Source: a virus
Lineage: Duplodnaviria; Heunggongvirae; Uroviricota; Caudoviricetes
Reading direction: 5' to 3' (one strand)
Virus record (IMG/VR): IMGVR_UViG_2778261065_000002
Location: 1-19,822 of that record
Length of the DNA stretch: 19,822 nucleotides
Below the pieces are notes generated by a model. It was not told where the DNA came from and searched no databases. It saw only the letters and a list, made by a program, of their open reading frames with translations. Shown here piece after piece: positions 7,835 through 17,644 of this stretch. Every line of letters begins with the position of its first letter. The stretch's first letter is position 1. Both the position numbers and the translations under genes were made by a program.

Positions 7835-8459
7835 CAGTATCACGGAAATTATTGAGGCGCTGGAACGCTACAGTAAAATCATCACCCCCTGGGCGACAAA
7901 GGTCGCGGAAAACTTTACTGCGGACCTAACCCGGCAGAACGAGAAAGTTTGGCGGCAACACAGCAAGAACATCAGTCGCGAGCTCCGCAATCTTGTGGAA
8001 AGCGCTCCTGTGGGCCAGGTGATGCAATCCATCATCGCCGAACAGGTCAAGTACATCAAATCGCTCCCCCTCGAGGCGGCTGACAGGGTGTACGACATCC
8101 AGAATCGGGCGACAGAAGCTGTTGTGACCGGCGGGAGAGCAGAACATTTTGCTAAAGAAATAGCCGCATCGGGTGATATAGCAAAGTCCAGAGTTGACCT
8201 GATTGCCCGTACTGAACTTGGACGTGCAACCGGCGCGCTGGATCAGGCGCGTGCGCTGTCAATTGGTTCGAATGGTTATATCTGGCGTACAGCCGAAGAT
8301 GGTGACGTCAGGCATTCTCATCGGGAAATGGAAGGTAAATTTGTCGAATGGGGCAAACCTCCAACGCTTGATGGCATGACCGGTCACGCTGGCGAGCTCC
8401 CGAATTGTCGCTGTTATAAAGAAATCGTTTTTCCCACCTCCCATTCTTACCCCGCCTGA
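7686..8459 (+). CDS. Head morphogenesis protein (Mu gpF / SPP1 gp7-like minor capsid protein)
   Basis: C-terminal region with IWRTAEDGDVRHSHREMEGKF...PNCRCY, the pattern I associate with F-like proteins; start ambiguous (ATG at 7686, 7695 or 7725), all overlapping the portal 3' end. Confidence 0.7.
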   Translation: MPKMKRRPASANLMTNRRNRQAEIRYRTSLRRIARAVGDIVNGHYDGSNDSITEIIEALERYSKIITPWATKVAENFTADLTRQNEKVWRQHSKNISRELRNLVESAPVGQVMQSIIAEQVKYIKSLPLEAADRVYDIQNRATEAVVTGGRAEHFAKEIAASGDIAKSRVDLIARTELGRATGALDQARALSIGSNGYIWRTAEDGDVRHSHREMEGKFVEWGKPPTLDGMTGHAGELPNCRCYKEIVFPTSHSYPA

Positions 8460-10215: not shown

Positions 10216-11157
10216 ATGATTACTTTTGATCAGGCAACCGTTGACAGCTCTGGTGCCTTTCTCATCGGGGAGCTGGAGCGACTCGACCAGACGCTGAACC
10301 TGCCACTGGTGGGGTACACCTGGACCCGCGATATTCAGTTGCGTGAAGATGTCTCTATCGCAGATGACATTTCCAGCTGGACGAATACCAGCTTCGCCGC
10401 TGCGGGTACTGGTGCAAATCCGAATGGCAAAAACTGGGTAGGCAAAGACTCAACCGCTATTGCTGGCGTGAACGTGGATACCGGCAAATCCGGTAACCCG
10501 CTGAACCTGTGGGGGATGGAACTTGGCTGGACGGTCATAGAATTGCAGGCTGCTCAGCAGGTCGGCCGCCCGATTGATACGCAGAAGTATGACGGGATGC
10601 AACTGAAATGGCAGATGGATAACGATGAACAGGTATATGTTGGCGATTCCGCATTAAACCTGAAAGGCCTTGTTACCCTGGACGGCGTGCCTGTCAACAA
10701 CGCTGCCAAAACGTGGGCAACCTCAACACCGGACGAAATCCGCGCAAGCATTAACCAGGTGCTGTCTGATGCGTGGGCCGCTTCTGGTTACTCTGTGGTC
10801 CCGCGTGATTTGCTGATCCCGCCTGAACAGTTTGCTCTGTTGTCCAGCATCATCGTTTCATCTGCGGGTAACCAGTCCCTGTTGACGTACCTTCAGACCA
10901 ACACCATCAGCTATCACCAGAACGGTGTTCCGCTGAATATCCGCGCGGTTAAATGGCTGAAAGGCCGTGGTGTGGGGAATAAGGATCGCATGGTTGCGTA
11001 CACCAACGATAAAAAATACGTCCGCTACCCGCTGGTTCCGCTTCAGAGCGTGCCGGTGCAGTATCGCGGCCTGTATCAGATCGTCACTTACTACGGCAAG
11101 CTGGGTGCAGTCGAGCCAGTGTATAAAGAAACTCTGTCCTATGTGGACGGTATCTGA
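10216..11157 (+). CDS. Major capsid protein
   Basis: 313 aa; position after scaffold and decoration genes, followed by a strong stem-loop; composition typical of a major capsid protein. Confidence 0.6.
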   Translation: MITFDQATVDSSGAFLIGELERLDQTLNLPLVGYTWTRDIQLREDVSIADDISSWTNTSFAAAGTGANPNGKNWVGKDSTAIAGVNVDTGKSGNPLNLWGMELGWTVIELQAAQQVGRPIDTQKYDGMQLKWQMDNDEQVYVGDSALNLKGLVTLDGVPVNNAAKTWATSTPDEIRASINQVLSDAWAASGYSVVPRDLLIPPEQFALLSSIIVSSAGNQSLLTYLQTNTISYHQNGVPLNIRAVKWLKGRGVGNKDRMVAYTNDKKYVRYPLVPLQSVPVQYRGLYQIVTYYGKLGAVEPVYKETLSYVDGI

Positions 11158-11167
11158 TAACCAGAAT

Positions 11168-11183
11168 GGCCCCGAAAGGGGCC
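11168..11183 (+). promoter_or_regulatory. Perfect GC hairpin with GNRA tetraloop just downstream of the capsid gene (RNA stability / attenuation element)
   Basis: GGCCCC-GAAA-GGGGCC: 6-bp all-GC stem with GAAA loop, 11 nt after the capsid stop; no U-tract follows, so not a classical intrinsic terminator. Confidence 0.45.
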
Positions 11184-11197
11184 TGAAGGAAACTGAA

Positions 11198-11566
11198 ATG
11201 GCGAAAGAAAAGCTGGTTACCATCCATGTTCACACCCCGTTTACGCTGACGCTCGGCGATCAGTCAAAACAGGAGTTTGGCCGGGGACGGCATAACGTAC
11301 CGGAAGAGGTCGCGTCGCACTGGTTCACCCAGGCGCACTCTGAGCTTTCCGAAAGCGTGATTAGCGACACCGATGATCTGCAACCCATTATCGACGGCCT
11401 GCAAGCGCAGATTGCCGACAAAGATAAGCTGATTGCCGATCTGAAAGATGCATTGCTCAAACTGCAGGAGCAGAACGACAGCCTGCAGGCGCAGATTACT
11501 GCCGCCCGGACTGGCGGTAATGGGGCTAAAGATGTCAAAGAATCAAAGTCTGCCAGCGGTAAGTGA
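11198..11566 (+). CDS. Hypothetical protein with coiled-coil C-terminus
   Basis: ATG at 11198 with AAGGAA RBS (the ORF-track start at 10967 overlaps the capsid gene and is rejected); heptad-like [27 protein letters not shown]. Confidence 0.5.
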
Positions 11567-13407: not shown

Positions 13408-14553
13408 ATGGCACAGGGCTTGCCTGTATCAAACGTTGTTAATGTTGATGTGATCATGTCGCCGCGTGCAGCATCAGGGCGAAATTTTGGTGCATTACTC
13501 ATTCTCGGCCCGTCCACAATCATTCCGGTAAGTGAGCGCATTCGCCGTTATTCTGCCGCGGAAGATATTGGAAAAGATTTTGGCGTGGAATCACCAGAAT
13601 ATAAGGCTGCGCAGGTGTTTTTCTCTCAATCACCGAAACCTCAGGAGGTTTTTGTTGGTCGTTGGGTGAAAACGAAGGGAGACAGCGAACAGGCCACGCC
13701 TGAGACGCTGGAGCAGGCTGTGAATGCCATGCTTGATTATACTTCATGGTATGGGCTGGGGATTGCAGACGATGAAGATATTCCGGATGCAGACTGGCTG
13801 AAAGTGGCTGCGGCGATCGAATCCTCTTCTGTAAGCCGTATTCTGGCGATTACGACAAGCGATGAGAAATGCCTGCAGACTGCATCCAGCGATGATTTGG
13901 CATCAAAACTGAAAGCCGCCGGATATTCACGCAGTTTTATTCAGTATTCATCGGGTAATAAATACGCTGCGTTATCTGCATTTGGCCGGGCATTCACGGT
14001 TAATTTCAATGGCAGTAATACCGCGATTACGCTCAAGTTTAAGCAGGAGCCGGGTGTCGGGTATGAAACACTGACAGTCAGCCAGGCATCGGCACTTGAT
14101 GCAAAAAACTGCAATGTGTTCGTGTACTACCAGAATGATACAGCTATCCTCCAGCAGGGAGTGATGGCTAACGGCGATTTCTTTGATGAACGCCACGGCC
14201 TGGACTGGTTACAGAATTATGTGCAGACCAACCTCTATAACCTGCTTTATACCAGCACCACGAAAGTTCCCCAGACTGAAGCCGGTATTACCCGACTGTT
14301 ATCAAATGTTGAAAAATCACTGGATCAAGCCGTTCAGAATGGACTGATTGCTCCGGGCGTATGGAACGGGGGCGACCTTGGTCAGTTGTCATCAGGTGAC
14401 ACACTGCCCAAAGGTTATTACGTATACGCTCAGCCGCTGGATGAACAGGCTCAATCAGAACGTGAAGCCCGTAAGGCTCCGGTGATTCAGGCTGCAATAA
14501 AACTTGCAGGCGCGGTTCATTACGCTGACGTACAGATTAACGTTGTTCGCTAA
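13408..14553 (+). CDS. Putative tail sheath protein (contractile tail)
   Basis: 381 aa, followed by a 146-aa tube-like protein, chaperone and tape measure: canonical sheath position. Confidence 0.5.
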
Positions 14554-14563
14554 GGGGAAGTGA

Positions 14564-15004
14564 ATGTCTACCTATTCTTTTATGGATGTCACTGCGACGC
14601 TGACCGGGCCGACCGGTTCGATTGACCTCGGGTACGGTTCTGCAAGTTCTGAAGAGGGGATTGTGGTTGCGATGGGCGGTCCTAAAAACACCATGACCAT
14701 CGGTGCTGATGGCGAAGTGATGCACAGTCTCCATGCAGATAAAAGCGGGACGATTACCGTTAACCTTCTGAAGACATCACCGACAAATAAAAAATTGTCG
14801 CTGGCGTATAACGCACAGAGCCAGTCTTCTGCCACATGGGGGAATAACGTTATTGTGATCCGCAACAAGGTCAGCGGCGACATCATCACGGCACGTAGTG
14901 TTGCGTTCCAGAAACAACCGGATAATGCCAACGCTAAAACCGGTAATACGATGCCGTGGGTGTTTGACTGCGGCAAGATTGACCAGGTTCTCGGGGAGTT
15001 TTAA
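14564..15004 (+). CDS. Putative tail tube protein
   Basis: 146 aa, between sheath and tail assembly chaperone. Confidence 0.5.
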   Translation: MSTYSFMDVTATLTGPTGSIDLGYGSASSEEGIVVAMGGPKNTMTIGADGEVMHSLHADKSGTITVNLLKTSPTNKKLSLAYNAQSQSSATWGNNVIVIRNKVSGDIITARSVAFQKQPDNANAKTGNTMPWVFDCGKIDQVLGEF

Positions 15005-15007
15005 TAC

Positions 15008-15460
15008 ATGGAATTCGAAATCAAAGGCGTGAAATATCGCGCGGCAAAACTCAGCGTTTTTGACCAGCTGAAAGTGACCCGCAAACTTCTTCCGGTACTG
15101 GCGGGGATGATGTCAGATTTCGGGAGCATTCGCTCCCGTTTGCCTGCTGATGGCAAAATCGACACCGTGAAATTCGAGCAGTTAAAACCGGTGTTTGAAA
15201 CCATGCTCCCGCGTATCGCTGAGGAACTGTCTTCCCTGACCGAAGATGACACCGATGCGATTATTCATCCCTGTCTTGCGGTGGTATCGCGGCGTCATAT
15301 GGACGGATGGGTGCCGGTATTTACCCGGGGCGAACTGATGTTTGATGATATTGACCTGCTGGTCATGCTGCAGCTGGTGGCGCGGGTGGTCGCCGATTCG
15401 CTGGGAAATTTTTTGCCTACACCCCTTACCAGCACGACGCAGAGCCTGCAACAGGGCTGA
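15008..15460 (+). CDS. Tail assembly chaperone (short, in-frame product)
   Basis: 150 aa directly upstream of the tape measure gene; contains the slippery run AAATTTTTTG near its 3' end. Confidence 0.6.
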   Translation: MEFEIKGVKYRAAKLSVFDQLKVTRKLLPVLAGMMSDFGSIRSRLPADGKIDTVKFEQLKPVFETMLPRIAEELSSLTEDDTDAIIHPCLAVVSRRHMDGWVPVFTRGELMFDDIDLLVMLQLVARVVADSLGNFLPTPLTSTTQSLQQG

Positions 15461-15648
15461 CGTTTAACAGCCTGCCGGACGGGCTGTCCTACCTTCTCAA
15501 TCCGGTTGACGCCGGGTTAATTCCTTATACAGCACTTAAAGATGGCTCTGTCGATTTGTACGACATTGCTCTCTTGAATGACCATCTGGCGGTAAAAGCG
15601 GATAACCAGCGGCGCATTGAGAAATGGAGAGAGGATAATGAACGCTGA
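15008..15648 (+). CDS. Tail assembly chaperone, -1 frameshifted long product (G-T-like fusion)
   Basis: The -1 frame is open without an ATG from the slippery site A_AAT_TTT_TTG (15406-15415) to the TGA at 15646-15648, filling the otherwise noncoding 177-bp gap before the tape measure start. Confidence 0.5.
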
Positions 15649-17644
15649 AACTATTAAAGATTTCCTCGTCTCGCTTGGCTTCAGTGTGGATGATGCAGGA
15701 GCGAAAAAGTTCGGTTCTGTCCTCGCCGGTACAACTGCAAATGTCATCAAAATGGGGCTGGCTGTTGAAGGGGCTGCGCTGTCCGTGGTGGCCTTCACGG
15801 CTAAGATCGCCTCCGGTCTGGATAATCTTTACTGGGCGTCACAGCGCACCGGCGCGACGGTCCAGGGAATTCAGTCTATTGGCTATGCGGTTTCGCAGGT
15901 TGGCGGCAGTGTGGACGCTGCGCGATCTTCTCTGGAAAGCCTCTCCCGGTTTATTCGTAACAATCCCGGAGCAGAAGGCTTTCTGAATCGCCTGGGCGTA
16001 CAGACCCGTGATGCCAGCGGTAACATGCGTGACATGGCTGCTATCTTTACGGGCGTTGGACAGAAACTCAGCAGCATGCCGTATTACCGGGCTAACCAGT
16101 ATGCGCAGATGCTGGGCATTGACGAAAATACCCTGATGGCTATGCGTCGCGGAGTGGGGCAGTTCAGCGCTCAGTATTCAGAAATGGTGAAAGCGATCGG
16201 ATTTAATGCCGATCAGGCTGCCTTATCGTCAAACCGGTTTATGACCTCGCTGAAATCGCTCGGTGAAATGGCCGGGATGGCGCGGGACAAAATCGGATCG
16301 AATCTTGCGGACGGACTGGCGGGGCAGATTGATAACCTGCGCAAAAAGATAATTGAAAATTTTCCCAAAATTGAAGTCACCATCACAAAGGTCATAAAAG
16401 GGATCCTCTGGCTGGGTGAGATAGTCGGGCGGGTAGCATTTCGGATAGTCGATGGTGTCGGAGATATCATCGAGTGGTGGGGGAAACTGGATGCCGAAAC
16501 GAAAACCCTGATAGAGGTTATCGGCGGCCTGGTTGTCGCCATGCGGATACTTAACTCTACTTTCTGGATGTCACCTATAGGGCTGATTACTGGTCTGATC
16601 GTGGCTCTCGGTCTCTTGTGGGAAGACTACAAAACATGGAAAGAAGGCGGTAACAGCCTTATCGACTGGGAAAAATGGCAACCGGCAATAGATAAAGCGA
16701 AGGATGCGATCACCTGGTTCCGCGACAAATTACTCGAGCTGAAAGACAGCGTGGGGGGATGGCAAAAATCATTGGAAATCCTCGGTACATTCATCGCGGG
16801 TGTCTGGATATCCAAGGTTCTGGGGGCTTTCGGAAAAATATCAGGTTTGCCGATCCCACCCTGGCTTAAATTGTGGGCGCTTTACGCGGGTTATATTGTT
16901 AGTGACAGAGAAAATATTGCCGATAGCGCAAAATCTTCACTGAGGTATACGAAGCGAATTATCGGCGACACGCTGGCTGCTATTGGTATAAAAACAGATA
17001 TCGGACGCAGGGATGTCAGTGAGGTCCGTGAATGGCCTGCGTGGATGGACTGGTTGCACGGGGGACCCGGTAAAGTTATCCGGCAGGGACAGAGTAACGG
17101 TGTAGTGCATGGCTCCAATGTCCAGCCCGACATCCCCGGCGGCGGCACTCTTGCTGATCGCAACAATAACCCCGGGAACATTCGCCCGGTGAGCGGTAAA
17201 GGGTTCCGTTTTTTCGAATCAGCGCTTGAGGGCTGGGAGGCGATGAAAAACCAGCTCATGCGTTACTTTACCGGGAAAACAACCGGACGGGCATTACAGA
17301 CTATTCAGGATATTGTCAGTACCTGGGCCCCGGCAGGTGATAACAACGATCCGAAAAAGTATGCACAGGATGTTGCGAAATGGATGGGAGTATCACCGAA
17401 TGCAATATTGAATCTTACAGATCCCCGGACTATGGGAGCATTGATGCAGTCGATGGCGCGCAAAGAAGGTTATTCAAACTGGAACAGCCCGCTGGCGTAT
17501 AAGGTCGCCGCTGGCAGCCTTAACCAGCAGACTGTTATAAATGTTCATGGAGTTAACAACCCTCAGGAGGCGGCTAATCTGATCGCTGACAAGCAGGGGG
17601 CTGTAAATGCCAGGGCGGTACAGCAATTGAAAGGACCTGCGTAA
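15638..17644 (+). CDS. Tail tape measure protein
   Basis: ATG at 15638 with GAGAGG RBS (ORF-track start at 15617 is TTG); 668 aa, Ala/Gly-rich helical N-terminal part, central hydrophobic segments, C-terminal globular region. Confidence 0.8.
   Translation: MNAETIKDFLVSLGFSVDDAGAKKFGSVLAGTTANVIKMGLAVEGAALSVVAFTAKIASGLDNLYWASQRTGATVQGIQSIGYAVSQVGGSVDAARSSLESLSRFIRNNPGAEGFLNRLGVQTRDASGNMRDMAAIFTGVGQKLSSMPYYRANQYAQMLGIDENTLMAMRRGVGQFSAQYSEMVKAIGFNADQAALSSNRFMTSLKSLGEMAGMARDKIGSNLADGLAGQIDNLRKKIIENFPKIEVTITKVIKGILWLGEIVGRVAFRIVDGVGDIIEWWGKLDAETKTLIEVIGGLVVAMRILNSTFWMSPIGLITGLIVALGLLWEDYKTWKEGGNSLIDWEKWQPAIDKAKDAITWFRDKLLELKDSVGGWQKSLEILGTFIAGVWISKVLGAFGKISGLPIPPWLKLWALYAGYIVSDRENIADSAKSSLRYTKRIIGDTLAAIGIKTDIGRRDVSEVREWPAWMDWLHGGPGKVIRQGQSNGVVHGSNVQPDIPGGGTLADRNNNPGNIRPVSGKGFRFFESALEGWEAMKNQLMRYFTGKTTGRALQTIQDIVSTWAPAGDNNDPKKYAQDVAKWMGVSPNAILNLTDPRTMGALMQSMARKEGYSNWNSPLAYKVAAGSLNQQTVINVHGVNNPQEAANLIADKQGAVNARAVQQLKGPA

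Follow-up and report, generated by a model that had tools for sequence, protein, structure and literature searches.

The analysed stretch of DNA (the window, 19,822 nucleotides) holds the late region of a temperate myovirus, a prophage of E. coli. All of its genes lie on the + strand, in the order lysis cassette, terminase, portal, head genes, sheath, tube, a 150-aa ORF, tape measure, and baseplate genes. A 1.1-kb query spanning the tube gene, the 150-aa ORF, and the start of the tape-measure gene (14564-15700) was 98% identical to the phages vB_EcoM-606R2, -689R2, -611R5, and -683R1 and 100% identical to several E. coli chromosomes. The 150-aa ORF was assigned as a tail assembly chaperone by its match to Phage_TAC_15 (PF21822), which covers residues 6-138 at 107.4 bits, well above the gathering cut-off of 22 bits. 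The chaperone stop is separated from the start of the tape-measure gene by an apparent gap of 177 nt, the neighbouring tail-gene junctions being 2-10 nt long or overlapping, and a search of this gap for promoters and terminators gave none above shuffle expectation. The coordinates of all features are collected in Table 1.

Table 1. Features of the tail assembly chaperone locus (positions are those of the window).
Feature	Positions	Strand	Evidence
Sheath gene	13408-14553	+	
Tail tube gene, 146 aa, directly 5' of the chaperone gene	14564-15004	+	Pfam KPP10_Orf10 E 8.8e-61; PGAP name DUF3277
Tail assembly chaperone, short form ('G'), 150 aa, 16.8 kDa, zero frame	15008-15460	+	Pfam Phage_TAC_15 E 1e-30; phrog_1688 tail assembly chaperone E 8e-65
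Whole open -1 frame, 97 sense codons and stop, sharing 106 nt with the 3' end of the chaperone ORF	15355-15648	+	
Slippery run G_GGA_AAT_TTT_TTG, three overlapping in-phase X_XXY_YYZ heptamers	15403-15415	+	Read from the sequence; in phase in relatives; codon freezing
Putative -1-frame extension ('T'), 78 codons and TGA, decoded only after the slip	15412-15648	+	Pfam DUF6889 E 1.2e-20; phrog_4364 E 2e-23; codon-position pattern
Predicted folded part of the extension, small three-helix domain	15475-15642	+	AlphaFold2 model of the 79-aa extension
RefSeq/PGAP standalone 54-aa 'DUF6889 family protein', CTG start without Shine-Dalgarno sequence	15484-15648	+	
Tape-measure Shine-Dalgarno sequence GGAGAGAGG, within the 3' end of the extension	15626-15634	+	Read from the sequence
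Tape measure protein, 668 aa; ATG overlaps the extension stop (ATGAACGCTGA)	15638-17644	+	phrog_2276 tail length tape measure protein E 9e-248

The gap is crossed by a -1 frame that stays open until a TGA located 8 nt into the tape-measure gene. The first-pass annotation had described this frame as open for about 78 codons through the 177-bp gap to a stop at 15646-15648 that overlaps the tape-measure start, and all of these coordinates were confirmed. It had also remarked that the extension has no ATG, and we found neither ATG nor GTG in the -1 ORF (15355-15645). Two TTG codons are present (15556 and 15574), both of them deep in the conserved domain and without a Shine-Dalgarno sequence. An open frame of this length is unlikely to have arisen by chance, because with stops making up 7.3% of the -1-frame codons across 18 late genes, 97 consecutive open codons are expected with P of about 6e-4; the longest other open -1 run in these genes is 68 codons.

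In the overlap of the two frames, the zero-frame codons read ...CTG GGA AAT TTT TTG CCT..., with GGA beginning at 15404 and TTG ending at 15415. A slippery run A_AAT_TTT_TTG had been placed at 15406-15415 of the chaperone ORF; this placement holds, and the run proved to consist of three stacked heptamers beginning further upstream, with in-phase starts at 15403 (G_GGA_AAT), 15406 (A_AAT_TTT), and 15409 (T_TTT_TTG) and a T6 run at 15409-15414. A slip on T_TTT_TTG would lead into the -1 frame at 15415 rather than 15412. The predicted fusion of the chaperone body and the extension has 213 aa and a mass of 24.0 kDa, in which residue 136 would be Phe after a slip on G_GGA_AAT or A_AAT_TTT and Leu after a slip on T_TTT_TTG. 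The predicted junction peptides are ...SLGNFFAYTPYQ... or ...SLGNFLAYTPYQ..., and the predicted Phe136 junction peptide is ...VVADSLGNFFAYTPYQHDAEPATGLTFNSLPDGLSYLLNPVDAGLIPYTALK.

The translated extension belongs to a known protein family, as its match to Pfam DUF6889 (PF21829) reaches 73.4 bits (E 1.2e-20) with a gathering cut-off of 23.9 bits, and it also matches phrog_4364, a family with no assigned function. The Pfam core corresponds to residues 38-76 of the extension (approximately 15523-15639). When the 79-aa extension was modelled alone with AlphaFold2, the mean pLDDT was 86.7, and the model consists of approximately 20 linker residues followed by a three-helix domain with helices at residues 23-34, 40-45, and 50-78. 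The model of the whole fusion, built on a 33-row alignment, had a pLDDT of 39 and was unusable. A Foldseek search with the extension model found no relative among the PDB structures (best E 5.6); its matches in BFVD were weak and limited to small, uncharacterised proteins of phages (best E 0.09). No match to the fusion was obtained in a sequence search of the PDB, and no NCBIfam model matched it.

The first-pass annotation had proposed an alignment with the corresponding gene pairs of related phages, and the layout turned out to be common to all intact relatives examined. From bacterial assemblies with one genome per species, we collected 47 species-level loci with chaperone identities of 34-86%, of which 45 have an intact chaperone ORF, and analysed the latter together with the phages Mulock, SEN34, and YP3. 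In all 45 intact loci and the three phages, a T6 or T7 run is present in the phase T_TTT_TTN, and all but two of them (one truncated, one read-through) carry a -1 extension of approximately 79 aa. In these relatives the extension typically reaches 188 nt beyond the zero-frame stop and the +1 frame closes within tens of nucleotides. Nine distant phages of Burkholderia, Bordetella, Acinetobacter, Ralstonia, Providencia, and Hafnia share this layout, with other in-phase motifs at the junction, namely C_CCT_TTT, A_AAT_TTT, G_GGA_AAT, G_GGT_TTT together with T_TTT_TTC, and T_TTT_TTT; an in-phase heptamer is found at the junction in eight of the nine, and the ninth has a U_UUU tetramer only. Altogether, the two-frame layout and an in-phase slippery motif are kept in 55 relatives ranging from Enterobacterales to Burkholderia and Acinetobacter phages.

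The pairwise nucleotide differences among 46 loci, sorted by -1-frame codon position, are approximately 0.29, 0.23-0.24, and 0.54-0.56 at the first, second, and third positions, respectively, a pattern indicating that the extension evolves as a protein under purifying selection in the -1 frame. Within the overlap it is the -1 frame that is constrained, and the zero-frame tail is variable in both sequence and length. These data bear on the simplest alternative, in which nothing is expressed from the -1 frame and its openness reflects chance in an untranslated spacer, a sequencing error, or a pseudogene. The low chance probability of the open frame and the strong DUF6889 match (E 1e-20) speak against this account, as does the purifying selection across the 46 loci. 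Furthermore, the T6 run is found with an identical layout in 80 of 80 close IMG/VR relatives, and near-identical DNA occurs in 311 E. coli genomes. We give this alternative almost no probability, and the family-wide conservation as read from the alignments effectively refutes a chance or sequencing-error origin.

Close inspection of the codons at the slip site revealed an unusual degree of fixation. Across 55 sequences, Phe135 is encoded by TTT in 54 of 54 cases, Asn134 by AAT in 47 of 47, and Gly133 by GGA in 44 of 52. Other conserved positions of the same gene served as an internal control: Phe18 is TTT in 21 sequences and TTC in 29, Phe112 is TTT in 30 and TTC in 23, and the conserved Gly7 is never GGA. 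A natural control is provided by three distant GC-rich lineages in which a chaperone-like part and DUF6889 are encoded in one ORF of 190-210 aa that aligns collinearly with the predicted fusion. In these lineages the junction codon is TTC, and an in-phase heptamer is absent anywhere in the gene; in one in-frame lineage, a separate Phage_TAC_15 gene lies just upstream. These comparisons of codons and layouts show that the -1 frame is coding, that its product is meant for attachment to a chaperone body, and that selection acts on the slippery nucleotides only where two frames need bridging.

The same data argue against the annotation used by RefSeq/PGAP, in which the extension is a separate small gene of 54 aa with its own start at CTG 15484. 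In favour of such a gene, PGAP and other pipelines place standalone ORFs of 43-78 aa here, and an in-frame Met occurs in some relatives, within the motif L-M-R-P-V. However, the -1 ORF contains neither ATG nor GTG, the CTG at 15484 is not preceded by a Shine-Dalgarno sequence, and the annotated starts vary between records. The conservation (FF.R.P..RD) and the -1 codon-position pattern extend up to the slip site, upstream of any annotated start, and the tblastn matches in distant phages start at residue 1 of the extension. Initiation at an own start also could not account for the frozen AAT and TTT codons. We therefore consider a separate gene very improbable, and the standalone 54-aa ORF is judged to be an annotation artefact. 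Database entries of the family are fragments with differing starts, labelled 'DUF6889 family protein', 'NTP pyrophosphohydrolase' (a frequent name), or 'hypothetical protein' in the records examined, and a search of 1.8 billion representative proteins again returned mostly short DUF6889 fragments. On our reading, DUF6889 is the frameshift-encoded C-terminal domain of Phage_TAC_15 chaperones.

Phage P2 provides a comparison, in which E and E+E', encoded in the FETUD tail operon, are related by a -1 frameshift on an in-phase TTTTTTG without downstream structure (PMC3091744; NC_001895 annotation). Like the phage in the window, P2 is an E. coli phage with a contractile tail whose chaperone gene lies directly 5' of the tape-measure gene. 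In both, an in-phase T_TTT_TTG is found approximately 20-50 nt before the zero-frame stop with no structure downstream of the slip run, and the stop of the extension overlaps the tape-measure ATG. The two systems differ in their protein families, which are Phage_TAC_7 (E) and Phage_P2_GpE (E') in P2 and Phage_TAC_15 and DUF6889 in the window, in the number of heptamers (one in P2, three stacked in the window), and in the size of the products (91 and 142 aa in P2, 150 and 213 aa in the window). Homology of the extension family to P2 E' was tried and rejected, since the hhalign probability was 0.3% and the similarity is confined to a shared WRE motif, which is not significant.

The P2 site also helps in weighing a further alternative, transcriptional slippage, in which RNA polymerase would add one U in the T6 run and a subset of the mRNA would carry a single continuous frame with no slip of the ribosome. 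A T7 variant of the same prophage does encode the 213-aa fusion in frame, so insertion of one T would yield the right product, and T6 or T7 is kept among the Enterobacterales relatives. Nevertheless, efficient slippage of bacterial RNA polymerase has been described for runs of approximately 9 A or T (PMC5009743), compared with which T6 is short, and a conserved long A/T homopolymer of that kind was not found at the locus. In distant two-frame relatives the junction homopolymer is only 3-4 nt long (GGGAAAT in the Bordetella phage, CCCTTTT in Magia, AAATTTT in the Acinetobacter phage), yet the in-phase heptamer is still kept. The identical TTTTTTG of P2 is named as a site of translational frameshifting in a comparative paper on P2-like phages (PMC3091744). 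Transcriptional slippage is thus improbable as the source of the fusion.

The ribosomal frameshift favoured here can also be compared with that of phage lambda, in which the yield of the long form is roughly 1:30 and the G/GT slip reportedly takes place on G_GGA_AAG (Levin 1993; Xu, Hendrix and Duda 2004, 2013, 2014). Lambda and the window share the position of the chaperone locus between the tail shaft and tape-measure genes, the production of short and long forms with a common N-terminus, and a low-level -1 slip near the 3' end, which is a prediction in the case of the window. The first heptamer of the window, G_GGA_AAT, resembles that of lambda, with T instead of G as its last base. In lambda, the tape measure is the partner of G and of the G part of GT, and the shaft subunit that of T (PMC5009743). 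Unlike lambda, whose tail is of the siphovirus type and whose frameshift ratio and binding partners have been measured, the window belongs to a myovirus and has a predicted frameshift with putative binding partners. In a search with the Pfam families of lambda G and T, the window proteins gave no match at E up to 0.1, and only TAC_15 and DUF6889 were found.

A stimulatory stem-loop or pseudoknot downstream of the slip site, envisaged in the first-pass annotation, is absent. Folding of 15416-15500 (85 nt) gave a z score of -0.8 and folding of 15380-15560 a z score of -0.3; RNAalifold with 20 diverse sequences predicted 0 conserved pairs downstream of the slip site, the mean z score of the downstream folding over 46 loci was +0.24, and a search of Rfam returned nothing at the gathering threshold or at E up to 1. 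The missing stimulator does not weaken the case, because P2 also works without one (PMC3091744). An upstream Shine-Dalgarno-like stimulator, GGGUGG (15383-15390, -6.5 kcal), was considered and found no support, as 16% of random 30-nt stretches taken from the window do as well; it lies 16-19 nt upstream, too far in comparison with the stimulator spacing of 10-14 nt. All relatives carry G-rich elements 11-26 nt upstream. The features of a stimulated cassette of the dnaX/IS3 type were likewise not seen, there being no hairpin or pseudoknot 5-9 nt 3' of the heptamer and no upstream element above background.

The slippery positions themselves vary in the family. Five of the loci and the Providencia phage lack the upstream AAA and have T_TTT_TTN only, the Acinetobacter and Burkholderia phages have X_XXT_TTT only, and the Bordetella phage has G_GGA_AAT only; since each of these relatives is limited to one heptamer, each of the three positions would serve as the slip site in some members of the family. 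In E. coli, the class H_HH.U_UU.Y, to which A_AAU_UUU belongs, ranks with the most efficient, and heptamers without stimulators in E. coli reporters reach at most about ten times a background of approximately 0.05% (PMC4066793). Given how weak unstimulated heptamers are in reporters, the yield in the window may fall well below that of lambda, and the long form is probably rare.

Homologues of both parts are found in two phages for which such a product has already been annotated. In Klebsiella phage Mulock (MN098327), the chaperone is 57% and the extension 64% identical to those of the window, and the slippery sequence is the identical GGGAAATTTTTTG. Burkholderia phage Magia (MT701587) has a longer chaperone (186 aa) and the heptamer C_CCT_TTT. 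Both GenBank records name a 'tape measure chaperone frameshift product', which is a prediction in either case, and the announcement of the Mulock genome is silent on the frameshift. In the Pakpunavirus/Vandenendeviridae phages, exemplified by phage Adele, the TAC-N/TAC-NC pair is a myovirus chaperone whose -1 site is a conserved poly-T (GTTTTT). Its downstream ORF routinely carries the wrong label of hypothetical protein, and the same kind of comparative argument was made for it in 2025 (PMC12846349). Adele belongs to another phage family than the window. T4-like phages have a two-gene solution (Vladimirov, Gautam and Davidson 2022, as outlined in PMC10885494). The overlapping two-frame layout of the window differs from this arrangement. 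Two distant DUF6889 lineages do resemble it, with a Phage_TAC_15 gene followed by an in-frame gene for a chaperone-like part and DUF6889, and as these are separate genes, the short and long forms would be made without recoding.

The G/GT-type frameshift is a well-known device of tailed phages, and its conservation among tail assembly chaperones was reportedly described by Xu, Hendrix and Duda (2004). The first-pass annotation had seen a match to it, with which the gene order, the Phage_TAC_15 assignment, the startless -1 ORF, the in-phase run, and the comparative data all agree. Two overlapping ORFs (15008-15460 and 15355-15648) lie between the tube (14564-15004) and tape-measure (15638-17644) genes, and the second, which occupies the -1 frame, lacks an ATG or GTG start and shares 106 nt with the 3' end of the first. 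The three heptamers at 15403-15415 are in phase as X_XXY_YYZ within this overlap, and the layout and the slip site are kept in divergent relatives, for which the in-frame lineages form a negative control. As far as sequences can tell, the feature has every computable property of the conserved chaperone frameshift.

Based on these results, we propose the following mechanism. Most ribosomes on the chaperone gene would stop at the TGA at 15458-15460 and produce the 150-aa short form, and a minority would slip by -1 on G_GGA_AAU_UUU_UUG, most likely with tRNA-Asn/tRNA-Phe on A_AAU_UUU and/or tRNA-Phe/tRNA-Leu on U_UUU_UUG. The slipped ribosomes would read the -1 frame to the TGA at 15646-15648, giving a 213-aa fusion in which the chaperone body is joined through a linker of approximately 20 residues to the three-helix DUF6889 domain. 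Apparently without an mRNA stimulator, the ratio of long to short form would be set by the stacked heptamers alone, at a low level. If the two forms act as G and GT do in lambda, their common N-terminal part may coat the tape measure protein and the extension may recruit the tube protein for polymerisation of the tail around the tape measure. We infer the ribosomal nature of the slip, its frequency, and the binding partners, as well as the production of the fusion and the need for it in tail assembly. It is almost certain that this E. coli prophage produces a second, longer version of the chaperone through a few ribosomes that slip back one base at GGGAAATTTTTTG, and we hold it to be highly probable that a programmed -1 ribosomal frameshift yielding the short form and the fusion explains the locus.

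A wider reading combines these observations and is offered tentatively, as a possibility to which we give rather less than even weight. DUF6889 may be the 'T' module of a distinct chaperone family that serves simple contractile tails of the E217/Pam3 type, with a three-helix fold that has no solved or characterised structural relative. The level of the long form may be set without an RNA stimulator by the three stacked, phase-locked heptamers, with additive contributions, and the family may have switched repeatedly between recoding and an in-frame gene for the long form, sometimes with a separate gene for the short form. If such repeated switching is true, the family would provide a natural series with which to test why the ratio of short to long form matters.

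The biology of the locus is that of a textbook G/GT frameshift, which has already been annotated in two homologous phages and has been overlooked by the standard annotation of the family. Its practical value lies in an annotation correction with a wide reach, as matching DNA was detected in 338 of the 5,426 complete E. coli genomes and many prophages of other Enterobacterales harbour a homologous locus. For frameshift predictors, the family supplies clean positive and negative controls, with frozen slip codons in the two-frame loci against TTC and no heptamer in the in-frame fusions. Reading the extension as the C-terminal portion of the tail assembly chaperone allows a function to be given to Pfam DUF6889 and phrog_4364.

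The window encodes a 'simple contractile tail' module of the E217 / Pam3 / KPP10 type, whose sheath, tube, Dit_like, plug and hub genes are collected in the table below. At its C-terminus (residues ~488-667), the tape measure protein has a lytic transglycosylase or endolysin-like region (phrog_873).

Features of the tail module and of the region upstream of the terminase (window coordinates)
Feature	Position	Strand	Remark
Sheath, DUF3383/E217_gp31-like	within 13408-19643		
Tube, KPP10_Orf10	within 13408-19643		
Dit_like protein	within 13408-19643		
Plug, Pam3_gp18	within 13408-19643		
Hub, E217_GP41-like	within 13408-19643		
314-aa ORF, TTG start	3624-4568	minus	overlaps the small terminase gene

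In the mechanical ORF list, two other regions of the window show overlapping frames: 149 nt between the portal and minor-head genes (7686-7834) and 119 nt at ~11448-11566, within 11141-11566. We rejected both regions as recoding candidates and regard the overlaps as artefacts of start choice, because PGAP places the starts at 7851, 11198 and 11532, downstream of those listed, which makes the overlaps smaller or abolishes them. The interval from the spanin genes to the small terminase gene (3324-4192) contains no plus-strand ORF longer than 60 aa. The minus-strand ORF there is probably spurious, since it overlaps the small terminase gene and has no Pfam match. The prophage of E. coli GCEC19 diverges from the window 5' of ~6368 and is otherwise collinear with it.

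A G-rich element complementary to the anti-Shine-Dalgarno sequence lies 5' of the predicted slip site in the window (15383-15390) and in every one of the one-genome-per-species relatives (L086-L132), where it precedes the T run by 11-26 nt. Its variants are GGGUGG, GGGGA, GGAGA or GAGGAG. Several relatives (L113, L118, L124, L130 and L131) have elements with a binding energy of -8 to -9 kcal at a spacing of 11-13 nt, resembling the upstream element of dnaX, whereas the window's own element is weaker and more distant. The G-rich element may be a mere consequence of the conserved V-V-G/A-D residues.

Among the 80 near-identical IMG/VR copies (L006-L085), the -1 extension stops early, after 36 codons, in one, possibly a decaying prophage, and runs to 82 codons instead of 79 in eight, possibly a variant C-terminus. 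Four other copies look degraded. The chaperone ORF is truncated to 47 aa in Apirhabdus apintestini (L093) and to 23 aa in an Arsenophonus endosymbiont (L127), and the extension ends after 11 codons in an Arsenophonus MAG (L122). In Izhakiella australiensis (L115), the extension stop has been lost, as the reading frame continues through 258 codons.

A further prophage copy, 98% identical to that of the window (L133, Logan SRR23924998), has T7 instead of T6 in the segment (1895-1912) homologous to window 15403-15415. The additional T places chaperone and extension in one frame, giving a single 213-aa ORF (P0001, which belongs to a cluster of 16 sequences) and leaving no gene for the short form. 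This T7 may have arisen from misassembly of the homopolymer, or it may be a genuine fusion-only allele.

Residues ~14-58 of the extension, with the pattern LP.G..-L..PV..G, are matched by the very long proteins P0159 (1857 aa), P0175 (3661 aa), P0194 (1218 aa), P0168 and P0163, each with 3-9 repeated matching stretches. In four GC-rich metagenomic lineages, L146 (689-1830), L147, L148 (1038-1664) and L149 (1201-1833), one ORF joins a chaperone-like part to DUF6889. In L149 a 674-aa ORF precedes the fused gene; in L148 the genes for Dit_like and Pam3_gp18 follow it immediately, and no tape-measure gene intervenes. L146 and L147 carry a distinct Phage_TAC_15 gene of 167 aa immediately 5' of the fused gene, so that the short and long forms have two genes in these lineages.
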